This document shows, piece by piece, positions 6,118 through 10,445 of a stretch of DNA of 64,000 bases. The notes beneath the pieces were generated by a model. That model saw only the letters and a list, made by a program, of their open reading frames with translations, did no database searches and was not told where the DNA came from. Made by a program: the position numbers and the translations under genes. The first letter of the stretch is position 1; the number at the start of each line of letters is the position of its first letter. The stretch is taken from the NCBI GenBank assembly GCA_038046245.1, contig JBBSWO010000003.1, positions 13,879-77,878 of the forward strand, read 5' to 3'. The stretch is from Nanobdellota archaeon (GTDB taxonomy: Archaea; Nanobdellota; Nanobdellia; Pacearchaeales; GW2011-AR1).

Positions 6118-6789
6118 ATGTTAACATTAGGAATTGACGATGCGGGCCGGGGTCCTGTCATAGGTCCAATGGTTCTTGCAGGTTGTTTAATCAATGATGA
6201 AGCCTCAAAGGAATTCAAAAAATTAGGCGTTAAGGATAGTAAGCAGTTAACCCAAAAAAGAAGAGAAATTCTTGTTGAGACAATAAAAGAAAAGGCTGAG
6301 ACATTTGAAGTGGTTGTAGTTTACCCCGAGCAGATTGACGGGACAGATGAGTTCAGAATAAATCTTAATGAATTGGAGGCTTTGGCATGTGCGGAAATAA
6401 TCAACAGGATAAACAAAGGATTTTCAAAAATAAAAGTCATTGTTGATTGTCCTTCAACCAATATAACCAAATGGACAGATTTTTTGAAGTCTAAAATAGA
6501 AAACCTTTCAAATTTGGAAATTTCTTGTGAGCACAAGGCAGACGTGAACCACATTTCAGTCTCAGCAGCATCTATAATAGCCAAATCATTAAGGGAAAAA
6601 GAAATGGATGATATAAAGAAAAAATACGGGAGCAAAGTCGGTTCTGGTTATTCTTCAGATCCTCTGACAAAAAAATTCATTGAAAATCATGGCAGTGAGT
6701 TTAAAGATCATGGAATAATAAGGAAAAGCTGGGCAACCTGGAAAAATTCTGTGGCTTTTAAAGAGCAGAAAAAATTGAACGAGTTTTGA
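6118..6789 (+). CDS. rnhB: ribonuclease HII
   Basis: N-terminal GIDDAGRGPVIGPMV catalytic block, DSKQLT, and downstream ADVNHISVSAASIIAK typical of RNase HII. Confidence 0.9.
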   Translation: MLTLGIDDAGRGPVIGPMVLAGCLINDEASKEFKKLGVKDSKQLTQKRREILVETIKEKAETFEVVVVYPEQIDGTDEFRINLNELEALACAEIINRINKGFSKIKVIVDCPSTNITKWTDFLKSKIENLSNLEISCEHKADVNHISVSAASIIAKSLREKEMDDIKKKYGSKVGSGYSSDPLTKKFIENHGSEFKDHGIIRKSWATWKNSVAFKEQKKLNEF

Positions 6790-6865
6790 AGCCGCGTTTA
6801 CACTTCCAAAAAACCTTTAAAAATAAGAGTTATTTCTTCTTATTGTACACTTTGTATATCTTACA

Positions 6866-9730
6866 ATGGCTTACATAAAAAGATTAGTGATGCATGGATT
6901 CAAGAGTTTCCCAAGAAAAATAGAAATACCTTTCACTCAGGGAATTAATGTAGTTCTTGGTCCGAATGGTTCAGGAAAATCAAACATTTCAGATGCTTTA
7001 TGCTTTGCTCTTGGAAGATTAAGCATCAAGTCGATGAGAGCTGAAAAAGCGCACAACTTGATTTTTTTGGGTTCTAAAGTGGCCTCACCTTCCAAAGAAG
7101 CAATTGTCGAAATGGTATTTGATAATTCTGACGAGACATTTTCAATAAATTCCAAAGAAATTTCAATAAAAAGAATTGTAAGAAGGAATGGTCAGAGTAT
7201 CTATAAAATCAATGACGAAACGAAAACCAGGCAGGAAATACTCGCTCTTTTGGCCCAGGCAGGAATAGATCCAAACGGGTTTAACATAATTTTGCAAGGG
7301 GAAATCCAGAATTTTGTAAACATGCACACAGAAGAGAGACGTAAGGTAATCGAGGAAGTTTCAGGAATCTCAGTCTATGAACTTAGAAAAGAAAAATCTC
7401 TTAAGGAACTAGAAAGAACCGAAGAGAAATTGAAAGAGGTCCAGGCGATATTAAGAGAAAGAACTGCTTACTTAGCAAATCTTGAAAAAGAAAGACAGCA
7501 GGCTTTGAAATTTAAAAAGCTCGAGGAGGATATAAAAAAATTCAAGGCAAGTATAATCAACTCTGATCTTGTAAAAAACAAAAAAGAAGTTGAAAGGATA
7601 ACTTCAGAAATTGAAAAGAAAAACAAAGAGCTCGAAAATTCAAGGAAAGCAATATCCGTTCTAAGAGCTTCAATAGATAATTTTCAGTCTAAGATAAGTT
7701 CCATAAATTCTGAAATACAAAAATCGACCGGTTTAGAACAGGAAAGACTGAATCAAGAGATTGCCAATATCCGGGCAGAGATTGCAGGAACTTCGGTAAG
7801 GATAGAAAATTTTGAGAACAAAATTTCAAATATCTTAAAACAAAAGCATGATCTGGAAGAAAGCATAAAAGAAAATGAGTCTTCTATAAAAGATTTGAAA
7901 AAAGATTCTGGAGTTGATGTTGCCAAGGGAAGCCAAAGAGCTTTGGAGGCAAAAAAACGTGAGCTTGAGGTCCTTGAAGACCAAAGAAAAAAATTTTATA
8001 CTTATAAATCAGAGTTTAAGTCAATCAAAGACAGAATAGATGATAAGAAAAGCTTGTTCCAAAGCTACTCGACAGAATCAGATTTCCTTCTAAACCAGAT
8101 GAAATCTTTGTCTCACGAACTTTTTGACAGAAACAGCGACGCCAATTTGCTTTCATCCTTGAGAATATCTCTCTCTGAGAAAAAAACAATGTTAGAGGAA
8201 CTTAATAAAAGGGAAAAAGAACTTGAAAAGTCATCTTCAACAAAAGAGTATGAGATAGAAAAACAGGGCTCTCTGGTGTCAAATATCGCTAAGATGGATG
8301 TCTGTCCGATATGTAAAAGTAAAATTACCAAAGATCATGTTCATAATATAGACAAAGAAGTAAAAGAAAAAATAACTCTCCTTAAAAAACAGATTGAGGA
8401 AGTCGACAAAGAACTTTCAGAAGTTTACAAAAAAAGGGATTTCATAATTAAAGACAGCGAGCAAATTTCCATTGAAACATCCAAAAGAGAAGCTGATTTG
8501 ATAAAGATTTCTTCGATAAACGAAAAAAAAGATCAGGTTAAAGTTCTTCGTGACAAAACAGAGAGTCTGAAGAGTGAGATTACTGAGTTAGAAAAAATAA
8601 GGAAAAGATTAGAGGAGAATATAGAACAAAATTCCAGCATAGAACAGAAATGCGAGACTGCAAGAGTTGAGTTTCAGGAAATATCAATAAGAAGTGATGA
8701 GACAGTAACGTCAGAGATTTCATTTAAACAAAGAGAGCTTGAAAGATCAAAAATCTCTCTTAAGCAGTTGGTAAGGGAAGAATCAGAAATAAGAGAAGAG
8801 CTTGATGCTGTAAAAAAAGATTTGGAAGAAAACGAAGAAATTTTGGCTAAAAAAAGAAAACAGGAAGAAGAGCTTACAAAAAAATTCGAGTCTTTGCTTT
8901 CTCAAAGAGATGAATTGCAAAGAAAGGTTAGAGACACAGAGATTGAAATTTCAAAAAAGCAAAATGATTTGCACAATGTTGAGATAAATATAAATGACTT
9001 TAAAATAGAAAAGGCAAAATTTGATGCAATGGTTGAAAACCTAGAGACGGAAATGCTCGGTTTTCCCGATGTAGAATTAATCAAAGCTCCCAAAGAATCT
9101 CTTTTGTCAAGATTGAGCAGCGCGCAAGACACTCTATCCAATCTTGGAACTGTCAATTTAAGGTCGCTTGAAGTTTATGATTCTGTCAAAAAAGAATACG
9201 ATACTGTCCAGGAAAAAGTTGACATAATAACAAAAGAGAAAGAAGGAGTAATGAGAATAATTCATGAGATTGATGTCAAGAAGAAAAAAACTTTCCTCAA
9301 GACTATTGATTCATTGAACGAAACTGTCTCAAGAAATTTCTCTCAACTAAGTCCTAAGGGAGAGGTTTCACTTGAGTTGGAAAACAGAAAAGAACCTTTT
9401 GAAGGGGGGGTTAATATAATTGTCAAAACCGGACATGGAAAATATTTCGATGTAAAATCTCTTTCGGGGGGAGAACAAACTCTAATTGCACTCTCTTTGA
9501 TATTTGCAATTCAAGAGTATAAGCCTTATTCATTCTATATTCTTGATGAAATTGACGCCGCGTTAGACAAAAGAAACTCAGAGAGACTTGCAGGATTGCT
9601 GAATAAGTACATGCAGAAAGGCCAGTATATAATAATAACTCACAATGATGAGGTTATTTCAAAAGCTACAACTCTTTATGGTGTCAGTATGCATGAAGGA
9701 GTTTCTAAAATAGTGAGCCTTAAATTATAG
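6866..9730 (+). CDS. smc: SMC-family chromosome ATPase (954 aa) with a CPxC motif at the coiled-coil apex
   Basis: The heads are SMC-type: GFKSF and GPNGSGKSN (Walker A) at the N-terminus, LSGGEQTLIALSLIFAIQ (signature) and FYILDEIDAALD (Walker B) at the C-terminus. The middle is ~700 aa of K/E-rich coiled coil. CPIC sits at residues 480-483 (nt 8303-8314). Confidence 0.85.
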   Translation: MAYIKRLVMHGFKSFPRKIEIPFTQGINVVLGPNGSGKSNISDALCFALGRLSIKSMRAEKAHNLIFLGSKVASPSKEAIVEMVFDNSDETFSINSKEISIKRIVRRNGQSIYKINDETKTRQEILALLAQAGIDPNGFNIILQGEIQNFVNMHTEERRKVIEEVSGISVYELRKEKSLKELERTEEKLKEVQAILRERTAYLANLEKERQQALKFKKLEEDIKKFKASIINSDLVKNKKEVERITSEIEKKNKELENSRKAISVLRASIDNFQSKISSINSEIQKSTGLEQERLNQEIANIRAEIAGTSVRIENFENKISNILKQKHDLEESIKENESSIKDLKKDSGVDVAKGSQRALEAKKRELEVLEDQRKKFYTYKSEFKSIKDRIDDKKSLFQSYSTESDFLLNQMKSLSHELFDRNSDANLLSSLRISLSEKKTMLEELNKREKELEKSSSTKEYEIEKQGSLVSNIAKMDVCPICKSKITKDHVHNIDKEVKEKITLLKKQIEEVDKELSEVYKKRDFIIKDSEQISIETSKREADLIKISSINEKKDQVKVLRDKTESLKSEITELEKIRKRLEENIEQNSSIEQKCETARVEFQEISIRSDETVTSEISFKQRELERSKISLKQLVREESEIREELDAVKKDLEENEEILAKKRKQEEELTKKFESLLSQRDELQRKVRDTEIEISKKQNDLHNVEININDFKIEKAKFDAMVENLETEMLGFPDVELIKAPKESLLSRLSSAQDTLSNLGTVNLRSLEVYDSVKKEYDTVQEKVDIITKEKEGVMRIIHEIDVKKKKTFLKTIDSLNETVSRNFSQLSPKGEVSLELENRKEPFEGGVNIIVKTGHGKYFDVKSLSGGEQTLIALSLIFAIQEYKPYSFYILDEIDAALDKRNSERLAGLLNKYMQKGQYIIITHNDEVISKATTLYGVSMHEGVSKIVSLKL

Positions 9731-9760
9731 TCATGACTTCGTAAACTTCGTTTCCGTCGT

Positions 9761-9802
9761 ATGCACGAGGGAGTTAGTAAAATCGTAAGTTTGAAACTAT
9801 AA
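9761..9802 (+). repeat. synonymously recoded duplicate of the last 13 codons plus stop of the SMC-like gene
   Basis: 9761-9802 translates to MHEGVSKIVSLKL*, identical to 9689-9730. 11 of 42 nt differ, all synonymous, and the copy is in the same frame as the gene. Confidence 0.85.
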
Positions 9803-9836
9803 CAATTTATTTATATCTGAACGTCTTCTATAATCG

Positions 9837-10445
9837 ATGGACAAAAGCGAACTTTTGGATTCTTTAAGAAAACAGGGTTTTTCTGAGAAAATCGTCAACG
9901 CTTTTTCTACAGTTGATAGAGAGAAATTTCTCCCGCAATTGATCAAATTCTTGGCTTATGATGACAATGCGTTGCCGATTGGTCATGGTCAGACAATTTC
10001 ACAGCCGCATACAATCGCAGTGATGTTAGACTTATTGCACCTAAAAAAAGACCAAAAAGTTTTGGAAGTTGGATGCGGTTCTGGTTATGTCTTGGCGTTA
10101 ATCTCGGAAATTGTTGGCGAAAATGGAAAAGTTTACGGTTTAGATATAATAAGAGATTTGGTTGAAAGATCAAAAAAACCTTTGTACAAATATCAAAATG
10201 TCCAGGCTCTTTACGGTGACGGTAGATTCGGCATGTATGAAAAAGCCCCATTTGACAGGATTTTAATCAGCGCAGCAGTTACTTCTATTCCTGATGCTCT
10301 GCTGGCCCAATTAAATGATGAAGGCATCCTTGTTGCTCCTCTTGGCTCTGATAATATGCAAAACTTAGTTTCATTCAAAAAATCGAAAGAAGGTTTGTCA
10401 ATCCTGGAACAAGTTCCAGGATTTGTTTTCGTGAAGTTCGTTTAA
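9837..10445 (+). CDS. pcm: protein-L-isoaspartate O-methyltransferase
   Basis: GQTISQPHTIAVML and the SAM-binding block VLEVGCGSGY; size (202 aa) is typical of PIMT. Confidence 0.85.
   Translation: MDKSELLDSLRKQGFSEKIVNAFSTVDREKFLPQLIKFLAYDDNALPIGHGQTISQPHTIAVMLDLLHLKKDQKVLEVGCGSGYVLALISEIVGENGKVYGLDIIRDLVERSKKPLYKYQNVQALYGDGRFGMYEKAPFDRILISAAVTSIPDALLAQLNDEGILVAPLGSDNMQNLVSFKKSKEGLSILEQVPGFVFVKFV

Follow-up and report, generated by a model that had tools for sequence, protein, structure and literature searches.

Recoded copies of the smc gene end in Pacearchaeota-like DPANN archaea: probable traces of recurrent insertion of small DNA cassettes

The smc locus and its second terminus

The window is the whole stretch of DNA that was analysed, 64 kb in length. 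It carries an smc gene of a Pacearchaeota-like DPANN archaeon, homologues of which bear the names Pacearchaeota, Nanoarchaeota or Woesearchaeota SMC (Table 1). Genes for RNase HII and an M29 peptidase lie upstream of smc, and pcm and a gene for a PKD-like protein lie downstream. On the + strand, pcm adjoins smc more often than any other gene in related loci (59 ORFs in the PCMT cluster), and the region before it aligns with the pcm-proximal sequence of two of these loci, L003 and L006 (ctaattatttatat...). The TATA-like stretch in this region may act as a promoter of pcm.

The last 13 codons of smc, which are the target of insertion, are present twice in the window: as the in-gene terminus (W1) and, after a 30-nt spacer, as a downstream copy (W2). 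The preliminary description had presented W2 as a recoded copy that differs from W1 only synonymously and had placed an in-frame TGA in the spacer, and both statements were confirmed. The two copies differ at 11 of 42 nt, spread over nine codons and the stop; all 11 differences are silent, and they include the codon-family switches TCT/AGT and CTT/TTG. The probability of at least 31 matches in 42 is ~3.5e-10 per position. Only 25 of the 126 single substitutions possible in W1 are silent, which gives a naive probability of 1.9e-8 for 11 silent changes, and none of 300,000 simulations yielded an all-silent outcome for 11 changes. In a repeat search the pair appears as a 43-nt direct repeat that reaches 2 nt (GT) further upstream, with starts 72 nt apart and in the same frame (frame 0). 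The core common to W1 and W2 is (GT)ATGCA, and in most loci it is ATGCATGA(YGG); the same stretch is also fixed by the codons for Met-His-Asp/Glu, so the shared core is not independent evidence of a strand-exchange site.

Table 1. Features of the smc-pcm region in the window.
Feature	Position	Strand	Sequence or evidence
smc gene, 954 aa	6866..9730	+	Pfam SMC_N 1.4e-52
W1, in-gene smc terminus	9689-9730	+	ATGCATGAAGGAGTTTCTAAAATAGTGAGCCTTAAATTATAG, translated MHEGVSKIVSLKL, stop TAG
Spacer, 30 nt, proposed 3' part of insert	9731..9760	+	opens TCATGAC, ends TCGT abutting the ATG of W2 (proposed old terminus)
Inner hairpin of spacer	CGTAAAC 9740-9746, loop TTC 9747-9749, GTTTCCG 9750-9756	+	alignment of 14 short spacers
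W2, downstream terminus copy	9761-9802	+	ATGCACGAGGGAGTTAGTAAAATCGTAAGTTTGAAACTATAA, translated MHEGVSKIVSLKL, stop TAA
Native smc-pcm intergenic region, with A+T-rich TATA-like stretch (ATTTATTTATATCTG) before pcm	9803..9836	+	alignment with L003 and L006
pcm (protein-L-isoaspartate O-methyltransferase), conserved right-hand neighbour of the hotspot	9837..10445	+	Pfam PCMT 2e-59

Read-through into an extended SMC isoform was rejected, as the closest homologue (P0002, 978 aa) owes its extra length to an upstream start call and is extended only at its N-terminus. A diversity-generating retroelement was likewise rejected because the differences (T>C, A>G, TC>AG, A>C, G>A, C>T, T>G and others) are not confined to adenine; in five neighbouring proteins of the window, no Pfam match to a reverse transcriptase was obtained.

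An assembly chimera of two co-existing strains, one of the readings offered earlier, can hardly be credited. Hainich groundwater does contain two related strains, and one Logan contig ends exactly at 9760, but this break arises because the co-occurring L006-like strain shares the spacer 31-mer with a different preceding base; strain co-occurrence suffices, and no exotic cause is needed. An independent ENA assembly from Hainich groundwater (L001) has the same W1-spacer-W2 structure, with 3 mismatches to the window over 8,865 nt, and the spacer fits neither allele of a simple bubble. Moreover, architecture, stacks and cargo recur over the contigs and metagenome-assembled genomes (MAGs) of many projects: more than 25 of them, with names that indicate different projects and assemblers (SPAdes-style NODE, MEGAHIT-style k141, JGI and ENA), show the same architecture.

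Terminus copies in related genomes

Extra downstream copies of the 13 codons were found in 25 of 149 distinct smc loci of Pacearchaeota-like DPANN archaea (~17%). There are 27 extra full copies, one or two per locus, all on the + strand and downstream of smc; nearly all begin at the Met codon (ATGCATGA), 28-650 nt past the stop, and they occur in any frame. The in-frame position stressed earlier is thus true of the window but incidental, with frames 0, 1 and 2 all seen in related loci. About six further loci have truncated relics or the spacer motif alone. The distribution is patchy: in a neighbour-joining tree of the C-terminal 200 aa of SMC, the nearest neighbours of L009, L013 and L056, among other insert-bearing loci, are insert-free. 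The spacers fall into at least five families that have no evident sequence similarity to each other and one common junction position, and most of them open with a CATG-containing motif. Terminus copies at other genes were found for 1 of 711 other ORFs in these loci, and no gene of the window besides smc shows one. In L045, a cassette without a hairpin is flanked by an identical 41-nt repeat of the terminus of an aIF5B-like gene. A virus-borne attachment site was rejected, as the degenerate 42-nt terminus pattern had no match in IMG/VR viral contigs.

Which of the two copies is native was judged from the relatives. At informative sites, compared with the nearest insert-free relative, 55 agree with the downstream copy and 19 with the in-gene copy, and it is therefore the downstream copy that matches the 3' end of smc in related genomes. 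For L009 against L112 the counts are 10 and 1, and the downstream copy retains the clade's own ...SLRV ending. No mosaic pattern is seen along the copy, which places the crossover within the first 9-15 nt; the closest insert-free relatives are 7-25% diverged, too far for the left breakpoint to be mapped finely. Downstream copies are spelled with the codons of single-copy termini, but in-gene copies are not: in insert-bearing loci the latter are enriched in TCN at Ser6 (p = 0.018), CTN at Leu11 (p = 0.0009) and TAG (p = 0.0045), in Fisher tests against 110 single-copy termini in which loci are treated as phylogenetically independent. W1 is similar to the middle copy of L003 (L2; 4 differences). 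W2, which directly adjoins the pcm upstream region, has its orthologues in the last copy of L003 (2 differences over 33 nt), in copy C2 of L006 and in the 16-nt remnant next to pcm in L006. Some relatives have an empty site and others an occupied one, in which the distal repeat represents the native sequence. Judged by these alignments, W1 is the foreign terminus, which arrived with the insert, and W2 appears to be the displaced native smc terminus, an intact ORF here but a relic. The earlier suggestion that a diverged allele had replaced the gene's 3' part and stranded the resident terminus through one illegitimate junction was right about which copy is resident and which is foreign; the single junction is not compatible with an architecture found in 25 of 149 loci, with stacks, a conserved hairpin, cargo in a few loci and a junction that is nearly always at the Met codon.

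The direct repeats, 72 nt apart, together with near-identical pairs in L056 (1 difference) and L061 (none), could also suggest a local tandem duplication of the gene end in the window genome, followed by divergence. This is very unlikely: the spacer would recur after W2, which it does not; neutral divergence would not be all-silent; and the copy that departs from relatives is the in-gene one.

Stacks reach three copies. Their layouts are A-spacer-B-N in L003, A-spacer-N with a 16-nt N remnant in L006, and B-spacer-N in the window. Where decay is visible within a stack (L003, L082), it has gone furthest in the most distal copy. Although 22 of the 27 downstream copies are still intact ORFs, five are broken: the start codon is lost in L070 and in copy C3 of L082 (ATA or ATT stands in place of ATG in decayed copies), a stop interrupts the copy of L087, that of L018 no longer ends in a stop, and that of L102 lacks 10 nt through a deletion. 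Several loci have 5'-truncated copies, and downstream substitutions fall at residues that are invariant in real SMC (MHGR, MSDR, IHDS). The old copies of the window, L006 and L003 differ from one another only synonymously, which requires either independent recent displacements or some residual constraint. These intact copies, W2 among them with its run from ATG to stop, are what could be said for a separately translated 13-aa micropeptide mimicking the C-terminal strand of SMC, another reading put forward earlier. The broken starts and stops, the truncations and the nonsynonymous changes in relatives make such a peptide scarcely plausible; in addition, frames vary, the start context is inconsistent, no Shine-Dalgarno-like or promoter motif was seen in the spacer, and a second copy is wholly absent from 83% of related genomes.

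Some units contain genes. Complete toxin-antitoxin pairs of one family, a PBECR2/DUF4258-like toxin with a DUF2283 partner, lie between full copies in L127 and L082; in L092 and L119, HicAB is followed by a truncated copy; and other loci have toxin-antitoxin genes beside the stack. The stretch right after smc often bears ParE/RelE, MazF or HicAB pairs and, once, a reverse transcriptase. Inserts range from 70 nt to 1.4 kb and contain toxin-antitoxin genes or small ORFs only. The possibility that the terminus travels with the ParE/RelE, MazF and HicAB cassettes was rejected, the termini of cassette-sharing loci being not clearly more alike than their smc bodies. An intein or homing footprint was rejected as well, as the inteins of two SMC homologues are placed in the P-loop rather than at the C-terminus. 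No integrase or recombinase gene was found inside the inserts (all up to 1.4 kb) or, by Pfam searches of part of the flanking ORFs (the larger neighbours that were checked), in 2.5-3 kb flanks, and a motif scan of the ORFs of the 64-kb window gave no tyrosine-recombinase motif. Nor does an integron integrase gene lie beside the insertion site, where the neighbours are RNase HII, M29 peptidase, pcm and the PKD-like protein.

The spacer hairpin and the route of entry

In an alignment of 14 short spacers, the 3' end of the unit shows an imperfect hairpin, conserved at its ends and variable along a stem whose paired positions covary. In the window the inner helix is extended by an outer pairing of AC (9736-9737) with GT (9759-9760). 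Of the nine pairs of the inner helix, with the two of AC/GT type counted in, seven change on both sides; none of 500 shuffles attained the covariation score, which lies far above slid controls. A T-C or C-T mismatch recurs in 8 of the 14 spacers. Across loci the spacers begin (T)CATGAC... and end ...TYGT immediately before ATGCATGA. The spacers of L006 and L089 match that of the window at 30/31 and 29/31 positions, although 4-fold sites differ by 51-61%; over the lineages compared, spacer identity of 29-30/31 goes with 4-fold differences of 51-66%. The period-9 motif noted earlier in the spacer is not conserved among relatives; the conserved feature is the hairpin. Since ATGCAT is palindromic, the opening motif has two possible readings: an inverted repeat of the start of the copy, or a direct copy that has been truncated. 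Shuffling driven by restriction sites at ATGCAT was rejected, since ATGCAT, TCATGA and CATG are not avoided in the window (ATGCAT, 19 observed against 18 expected).

The spacer is unique in the 64-kb window (no second copy with up to 3 mismatches), and no hairpin motif away from smc was found in ~830 kb of related DNA scanned on both strands. A dispersed repeat, a MITE or an IS200/IS605-derived PATE was rejected on this absence of copies at unrelated sites. Rfam covariance models detected only tRNAs at gathering thresholds and nothing relevant at E up to 5, which also set aside a known structured RNA family. A bulge-helix-bulge intron does not agree with the predicted fold (one 3-nt bulge, a 2-bp helix and a 2x2 internal loop rather than helix-bulge-4 bp-bulge-helix), and a kink-turn would need another bulge orientation.

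The comparisons show that the copies recur, that the downstream one is native, that copies stack and decay, that some units carry cargo and that the hairpin is constrained; how the unit recombines is inferred, since the searches revealed no integrase. The window is probably the scar of a small DNA cassette inserted in the last 13 codons of smc, one instance of a recurrent, terminus-replacing integration. The incoming 72 nt (9689-9760) would comprise a foreign synonymous copy of the 13 codons, its own stop and the 30-nt hairpin element. Recombination would take place inside ATGCAYGA (codons Met-His-Asp/Glu), the sole nearly nucleotide-invariant stretch of the terminus, and would thus leave SMC intact. 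SMC would now end in the copy supplied by the cassette, with the resident terminus (9761-9802) pushed downstream, outside any gene. The all-synonymous differences between W1 and W2 would date from a time when the two copies were genuine SMC termini of separate lineages, and would not reflect present-day selection on W2. New units would enter gene-proximally while old termini pile up downstream and slowly decay; a few units would carry toxin-antitoxin genes between the copies, and the cargo-free unit of the window would be a minimal one.

The hairpin and the downstream copy could instead be kept as an RNA-level 3'-UTR element of smc, with roles in mRNA stability, processing or insulation from the downstream toxin-antitoxin or pcm genes, the duplication being merely its origin. 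This is an improbable alternative. It would account for near-identity of the spacer across lineages with saturated 4-fold sites and for the covarying stem, and four wobble pairs, G-T/T-G on the + strand (A-C mismatches on the complement), weakly favour folding of the + strand; the spacer start can also pair with AUGCAUGA of either copy. However, the hairpin has no Rfam match at permissive thresholds and is thermodynamically weak (z-scores -0.1 to -2.2), the U-tract expected of archaeal termination is absent, and the foreign in-gene copy is left unexplained. Approximately 116 of 121 insert-free loci have no comparable sequence after the smc stop, indicating that smc does not depend on the hairpin.

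For the cassette itself, we tentatively propose that the hairpin and the ATGCATGA core form a recombination site served by a recombinase encoded elsewhere. The layout would be a gene-proximal core, a payload and a folded site abutting the next core, as in integron cassettes or CTX-type single-strand attachment sites; a counterpoint is that, at 72 nt, the unit is too short for its mobile form to be a double-stranded circle.

Almost as likely is that no dedicated machinery exists and that 'terminus - spacer - terminus' was spread and reshuffled by ordinary RadA-dependent homologous recombination. This could proceed by a double crossover in which the smc body provides the left homology arm and the copy the right one, or by looping-out and Campbell-type re-integration of repeat-flanked circles, and the shared ATG junction would be inherited or set by microhomology rather than specified by an enzyme. 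Consistent with such exchange, no recombinase was found and the junction varies in some loci: it extends at least 6 nt upstream in L127, lies at the Gly codon in copy L3 of L003 and at the Lys codon in the relics of L092, L119 and L053, and the L006 remnant has only 16 nt. The copies of one genome have residues peculiar to their lineage in common (Q in L013, E in L100, D in L003 versus E in the window), which points to related donors, as homology-dependent exchange would yield. The two identical copies and repeated flank of L061 are the expected trace of a recent homologous or tandem event, and the hairpin-free repeat of the aIF5B-like gene also agrees with this route. On the other hand, dissimilar spacer families share an identical junction position, 42-nt arms at 70-90% identity are poor substrates, and hairpin conservation, covariation and the CATG-containing opening motif are left unexplained.

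A more specific and rather doubtful extension of the recombination-site proposal is an integron-like cassette system in Pacearchaeota-like DPANN archaea, with the last 13 codons of the essential smc gene as attachment site. Each cassette would have to carry a working synonymous copy of these codons and a short folded hairpin site, and the mover would be a recombinase encoded elsewhere, possibly a host Xer-type enzyme acting on single-stranded DNA. The cassettes would deliver toxin-antitoxin and defence genes, with the cargo-free 70-nt units as the minimal mobile form. Under this model, the TCN/CTN/TAG enrichment would stem from common cassette descent or from selection against recombination with the stranded copy.

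Comparison with known mobile systems

The smc units resemble integron cassettes in entering gene-proximally and in their order of core start, payload and imperfect hairpin abutting the next core. As in attC, the ends of the hairpin are conserved, its stem varies by covariation and a mismatch recurs; the cargo, often a toxin-antitoxin pair, is small, and a recombinase of their own is lacking. However, the 14-spacer alignment contains no RYYYAAC/GTTRRRY boxes (R boxes), no IntI gene was seen, the hairpins (~25 nt) are much shorter than attC and the arrays are short (1-3 units). Unlike in integrons, the equivalent of attI would lie inside an essential gene, and every unit must therefore carry 13 of its codons. 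Integrons are reported in Archaea in one source (PMC9668308).

Small cassettes, often with toxin-antitoxin genes, that use a host recombinase in trans are also found in Xer-dependent modules (Acinetobacter pdif, CTX-type phages), in which the DNA, once integrated, has the folded attachment site at one of its ends. The smc units are likewise small, some with toxin-antitoxin genes and with a folded site at one end, but the surroundings of ATGCAT show no 11-6-11 site of the dif kind, and the smc site is not at a replication terminus. Tn7 targets the conserved end of glmS (attTn7) and inserts downstream, without codon replacement or duplication of codons; it makes a 5-bp duplication and carries its own transposase. 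The smc terminus is similarly a conserved, safe and universal landing mark beside a permissive intergenic region, but the smc unit duplicates and replaces terminal codons and has no recombinase of its own.

The conserved ends of tRNA genes, and of a few protein genes, are known landing sites of mobile DNA, which supplies them with a replacement end, and tycheposons leave stacks of tRNA remnants. Among the targets of archaeal integrated elements are the 3'-distal parts of protein-coding genes, and elements at a single site can form tandem arrays; 14 of 68 thaumarchaeal elements lie in the 3' ends of protein genes, and the archaeal att sequence has a median length of ~45 bp (PMC6563490). The smc case has in common with these elements a conserved housekeeping gene end as target, an incoming copy that restores the gene, an old end that remains as a downstream direct repeat, stacks formed by re-use of the site, and repeats of 42-44 nt, close to the archaeal att median. 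As in att-flanked elements, direct repeats flank the inserted DNA and one of them overlaps the end of smc, in the window and across the 25 of 149 loci. In contrast to such elements, the smc inserts are tiny (70 nt to 1.4 kb) and have no integrase in or near them, the repeats are identical only over 8-15 nt and otherwise differ synonymously, and many units have a dedicated hairpin. No description of smc as an insertion target or hotspot was found in the literature searched.

In practice, a stack of recoded termini is a concrete sequence signature for insertion hotspots in uncultured genomes and a natural record of successive insertions, and it offers candidate recombination-site sequences that are open to in vitro testing. 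In annotation, short recoded copies of gene ends should not be called micropeptide genes or assembly errors. Set beside the systems above, the smc case would represent the logic of terminus replacement on a very small scale and with high frequency, in a group, the DPANN archaea, about whose mobile elements and routes of gene exchange little is known.

The recoded smc terminus and its recurrence

The smc gene of the window, downstream of a gene for RNase HII, ends in 13 codons (W1) that recur beyond its stop codon as a second copy (W2). The 11 of 42 nt at which the two copies differ are all silent changes, codon-family switches for Ser (TCT/AGT) and Leu (CTT/TTG) among them. Of the 126 single substitutions possible in W1, 25 are silent; the naive probability of 11 silent changes is ~2e-8, an outcome reached in 0 of 300,000 simulations, and a 31/42 match has a chance of ~3.5e-10 per position. 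In a repeat search the pair ranked first among the direct repeats of the region, reaching 2 nt further upstream. An independent ENA assembly from Hainich groundwater (L001; 3 mismatches to the window in 8,865 nt) has the identical arrangement. The recoded copy reported in the preliminary description is thus confirmed, and its suggestion of an assembly chimera found no support. A Logan contig (L002) breaks off precisely where the spacer between the copies ends, a break attributable to a co-occurring strain like that of L006, a close relative, which has the same spacer 31-mer preceded by T instead of G. Two related populations whose terminus stacks differ thus live side by side in the same groundwater.

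Features of the smc 3' region in the window and in related loci
Feature	Position	Strand	Remarks
SMC gene, 954 aa	window 6866-9730	+	Pfam SMC_N, canonical SMC
W1, end of SMC gene	window 9689-9730	+	encodes MHEGVSKIVSLKL and stop
W2, downstream copy	window 9761-9802	+	encodes MHEGVSKIVSLKL and stop
pcm, methyltransferase gene	window 9837-10445	+	downstream of SMC gene
Contig L002, 3,056 nt	window 6705-9760		three samples
~91-nt spacer family	L056:3014-3104, L096:3032-3123, L070:575-665		between smc termini
~91-nt spacer family	L061:3032-3127, L100:3032-3184, L053:3032-3203		between smc termini
29-nt unit CTAATTGCCGAAGCGTATGGCTAATCGCA	L058, +1 to +78 after smc stop		twice, 20 nt apart, between termini
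Paired CTATAG motifs	first 70 nt after smc stop in L019, L025, L039, L074, L088 and L036, L047, L050, L104		just upstream of antitoxin start
Reverse transcriptase, 440 aa	L163, +57 to +1379 after smc stop	-	Pfam RVT_1, 3.4e-13; between smc and pcm
Terminus repeat of aIF5B-like GTPase gene (580 aa)	L045:4823-5389		JGI contig Ga0208375_1001522; next after smc

Relatives of the window SMC all lie in MAGs labelled Pacearchaeota, Nanoarchaeota or Woesearchaeota (DPANN archaea). The loci around them numbered 160 (80 metagenome contigs and 80 GTDB species genomes); 5 more were added by exact-protein look-up, and 149 were left after removal of duplicates. In 25 of the 149 the last 13 codons and stop are found again at full length, in one or two further copies, always downstream of smc and on its strand, between +28 and +650 nt, and about six more loci hold truncated relics or the spacer motif alone (among them L092, L119, L120, L010 and L151). 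The downstream copies occur in frames 0, 1 and 2 relative to smc, so that the in-frame placement of W2, previously remarked on, is a coincidence. In a neighbour-joining tree of the C-terminal 200 aa of SMC, the insert-bearing loci are scattered, several beside neighbours with a single terminus.

No terminus copy was found at the other genes of the window, and a comparable one was found in 1 of 711 other ORFs of at least 100 aa at the same loci, the aIF5B-like GTPase gene of L045. The final 41 nt of its coding sequence are repeated 483 nt downstream, identical save for the stop codon (TAG vs TAA), and the repeats enclose a minus-strand ORF of ~117 aa for which Pfam gave no match. A second gene thus has a terminus duplication like that of smc; it looks recent and is devoid of the smc-type hairpin. 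Two SMC homologues from Pacearchaeota, P0012 (1478 aa) and P0050 (1486 aa), carry an intein of ~525 aa with a LAGLIDADG domain in the Walker A/P-loop (after GPNGSGK), and the window SMC has none; an intein footprint was rejected as the origin of the duplicated terminus.

Native and inserted copies

The polarity of the duplication was assessed at loci with a reasonably close insert-free relative, scoring only the sites at which the two copies differ. The terminus of the relative agrees with the downstream copy at 55 sites and with the in-gene copy at 19. The clearest case is the comparison of L009 with its relative L112 (10 to 1), in which the downstream copy retains the clade's own ...SLRV ending and differs from the L112 terminus at 2 of 42 nt, the in-gene copy ending in ...SLKI. 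Downstream-like sites range from about position 9 through the stop, which places the exchange point within the first 9-15 nt. Codon usage agrees with this polarity: in Fisher tests uncorrected for shared ancestry, in-gene copies differ from single-copy termini in TCN at the first Ser (14/25 vs 32/110, p 0.018), CTN at Leu (14/25 vs 23/110, p 0.0009) and TAG as stop (11/25 vs 17/110, p 0.0045), and none of these three features sets downstream copies apart from single-copy termini. W2 is accordingly the stranded native end of smc, and W1 with the spacer the insert, since W2 adjoins the native upstream sequence of pcm and is orthologous to the copies found there in two close relatives: in L003 the last copy, with 2 differences in 33 nt, and in L006 the pcm-adjacent copies. 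The earlier proposal that a diverged allele had replaced the 3' part of the gene and stranded its old terminus was largely right in its outcome.

In the three closest genomes, terminus types A, B and N are combined in three different ways. The window reads B, spacer, N; L006 (Hainich H41; smc ~84% nucleotide identity) reads A, spacer, N, followed by a 1.4-kb insert and a 16-nt remnant of N; and L003 reads A, a variant spacer, B and an N truncated at its 5' end. By this comparison, each new unit comes in on the gene side of the stack. Loss of units is possible too, the simplest route being recombination between the repeated parts.

Decay is visible in two stacks, L003 and L082, and in both the most distal copy is the most decayed: the third copy is the truncated one in L003, and in L082 it begins with ATT and has 5 amino-acid changes. 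The three copies of L013 are all intact. Of the downstream copies, 27 in all, 22 still form intact ORFs; the other 5 are broken, by lost starts, an internal stop, a lost stop or a 10-nt deletion (L102). With L102 excluded, codon differences between copies comprise 161 synonymous and 32 non-synonymous changes, several of them at residues invariant in functional SMC (MHGR, MSDR, IHDS). This pattern argues against a conserved 13-aa micropeptide, another reading offered in the preliminary description, which is left unsupported. It fits a history in which the copies would have diverged while both were real termini in different lineages, the 42-nt relic then decaying slowly.

Spacers, hairpins and cargo

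In 14 loci, including the window, the spacer is 28-34 nt long and of one family. In its layout (T)CATG(G)AC-TY precedes a hairpin with a 5-9-bp stem and a 2-6-nt loop, and the second stem arm is followed by TYGT, which directly abuts ATGCATGA of the old copy. Across these spacers 7 of 9 pairs of the inner helix change on both sides, and the covariation score is 0.348, against 0.148 +/- 0.02 for shuffled sets (0 of 500 reaching it) and at most 0.147 for slid controls. A T-C or C-T mismatch occupies one stem position in 8 of 14, and stability is modest (z-scores -0.1 to -2.2). The 'period-9' motif described previously is simply the two arms of the window hairpin and is not conserved. The window spacer matches those of L006 and L089 at 30 and 29 of 31 positions; smc 4-fold sites among the three genomes differ at 51-66%, and the copies on either side show many silent differences, so the spacer is constrained on its own sequence. 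It is unique within the window, absent elsewhere in ~830 kb of related DNA, and has no match in Rfam.

Other loci have spacers without evident similarity to that of the window, among them families of ~91 nt and 47-103 nt and the twice-repeated 29-nt unit of L058. Most of these open with TCATGCA(C), 0-7 nt after the new stop codon. Since ATGCAT is its own reverse complement, this motif may be either the start of the copy repeated in inverted orientation or a direct copy cut short. The ~91-nt family has at least two covarying-looking helices; one, GCGATTTC/GAAATCGC, is compensated in L100 to CGATTTTT/AAAAATCG. A GAGGAA motif is conserved, the terminal hairpin is flanked by A and T runs, and L100 and L053 have large insertions in the first loop. 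The family has no Rfam match; it may represent a small structured RNA, or else a larger recombination site.

Some inserts carry cargo. In L127 and L082 a two-gene toxin-antitoxin cassette (a PBECR2/DUF4258-like nuclease and a DUF2283 partner) lies between two copies, with a CATGAC-type hairpin ahead of the old copy in L082; in L092 and L119 a truncated copy of 24 nt comes after a HicAB cassette. Clustering of all ORFs in the 2.6 kb after smc revealed the smc-pcm stretch as a variable islet, often with ParE/RelE, MazF or HicAB pairs and once with a reverse transcriptase (L163), which suggests that the hotspot also gathers defence-type genes. A promoter-like region with paired CTATAG motifs (e.g. 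ctatagt...ctatag) is common to the cassettes of ParE/RelE type and of MazF type and probably serves as an autoregulatory operator. Neither the inserts and flanks nor, in a motif scan, the 64-kb window showed an integrase.

Mechanism and known systems

Where its last 13 codons begin, smc has repeatedly received a foreign terminus and hairpin, sometimes with cargo; the gene stays intact and its old end is stranded. Our preferred guess, a tentative one, is that a recombinase encoded elsewhere would act in trans as the mover of these units, using the hairpin and the ATGCATGA core as its recombination site. This reading draws on a junction position common to spacer families without evident similarity, a constrained, covarying hairpin exactly at the 3' edge of the insert, the gene-proximal entry of new units, and the small size of a cargo free of recombinases. 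Homologous recombination or microhomology at ATGCAYGA, the sole nucleotide-invariant stretch, might instead spread and reshuffle repeat-flanked units between related lineages, which we regard as only slightly less likely. It would accord with the lack of any recombinase found, the variation of some junctions, the identical repeats of L061 and L045, and lineage-specific residues common to copies within one genome, which imply related donors, but it leaves the conservation of the hairpin unexplained. Duplex DNA of 72 nt cannot close into a circle; the minimal unit must therefore move single-stranded or by double crossover, or be a cargo-deleted derivative.

Recombination in trans at the hairpin would share its topology with integron cassettes and with single-strand hairpin attachment sites. 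The smc units work like an integron cassette array, but have no R boxes and no IntI nearby, and an smc-anchored integron-like cassette system in DPANN archaea is the most novel description, though an unlikely one. Diversity-generating retroelements (DGR), a dispersed miniature transposon and a known RNA were each rejected as the identity of the units. In archaea, mobile elements integrate in the 3'-distal part of tRNA or protein genes, replace the gene end and form arrays at one site (PMC6563490), and this is the closest known kind. The smc units differ from such elements in that they are miniature and have no integrase within them, identity between their repeats is confined to the core, with silent differences beyond it, many have a dedicated hairpin, and the target is smc. 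The replacement of the smc terminus is real and more than a one-off scar, and its core is a variation on a known theme.
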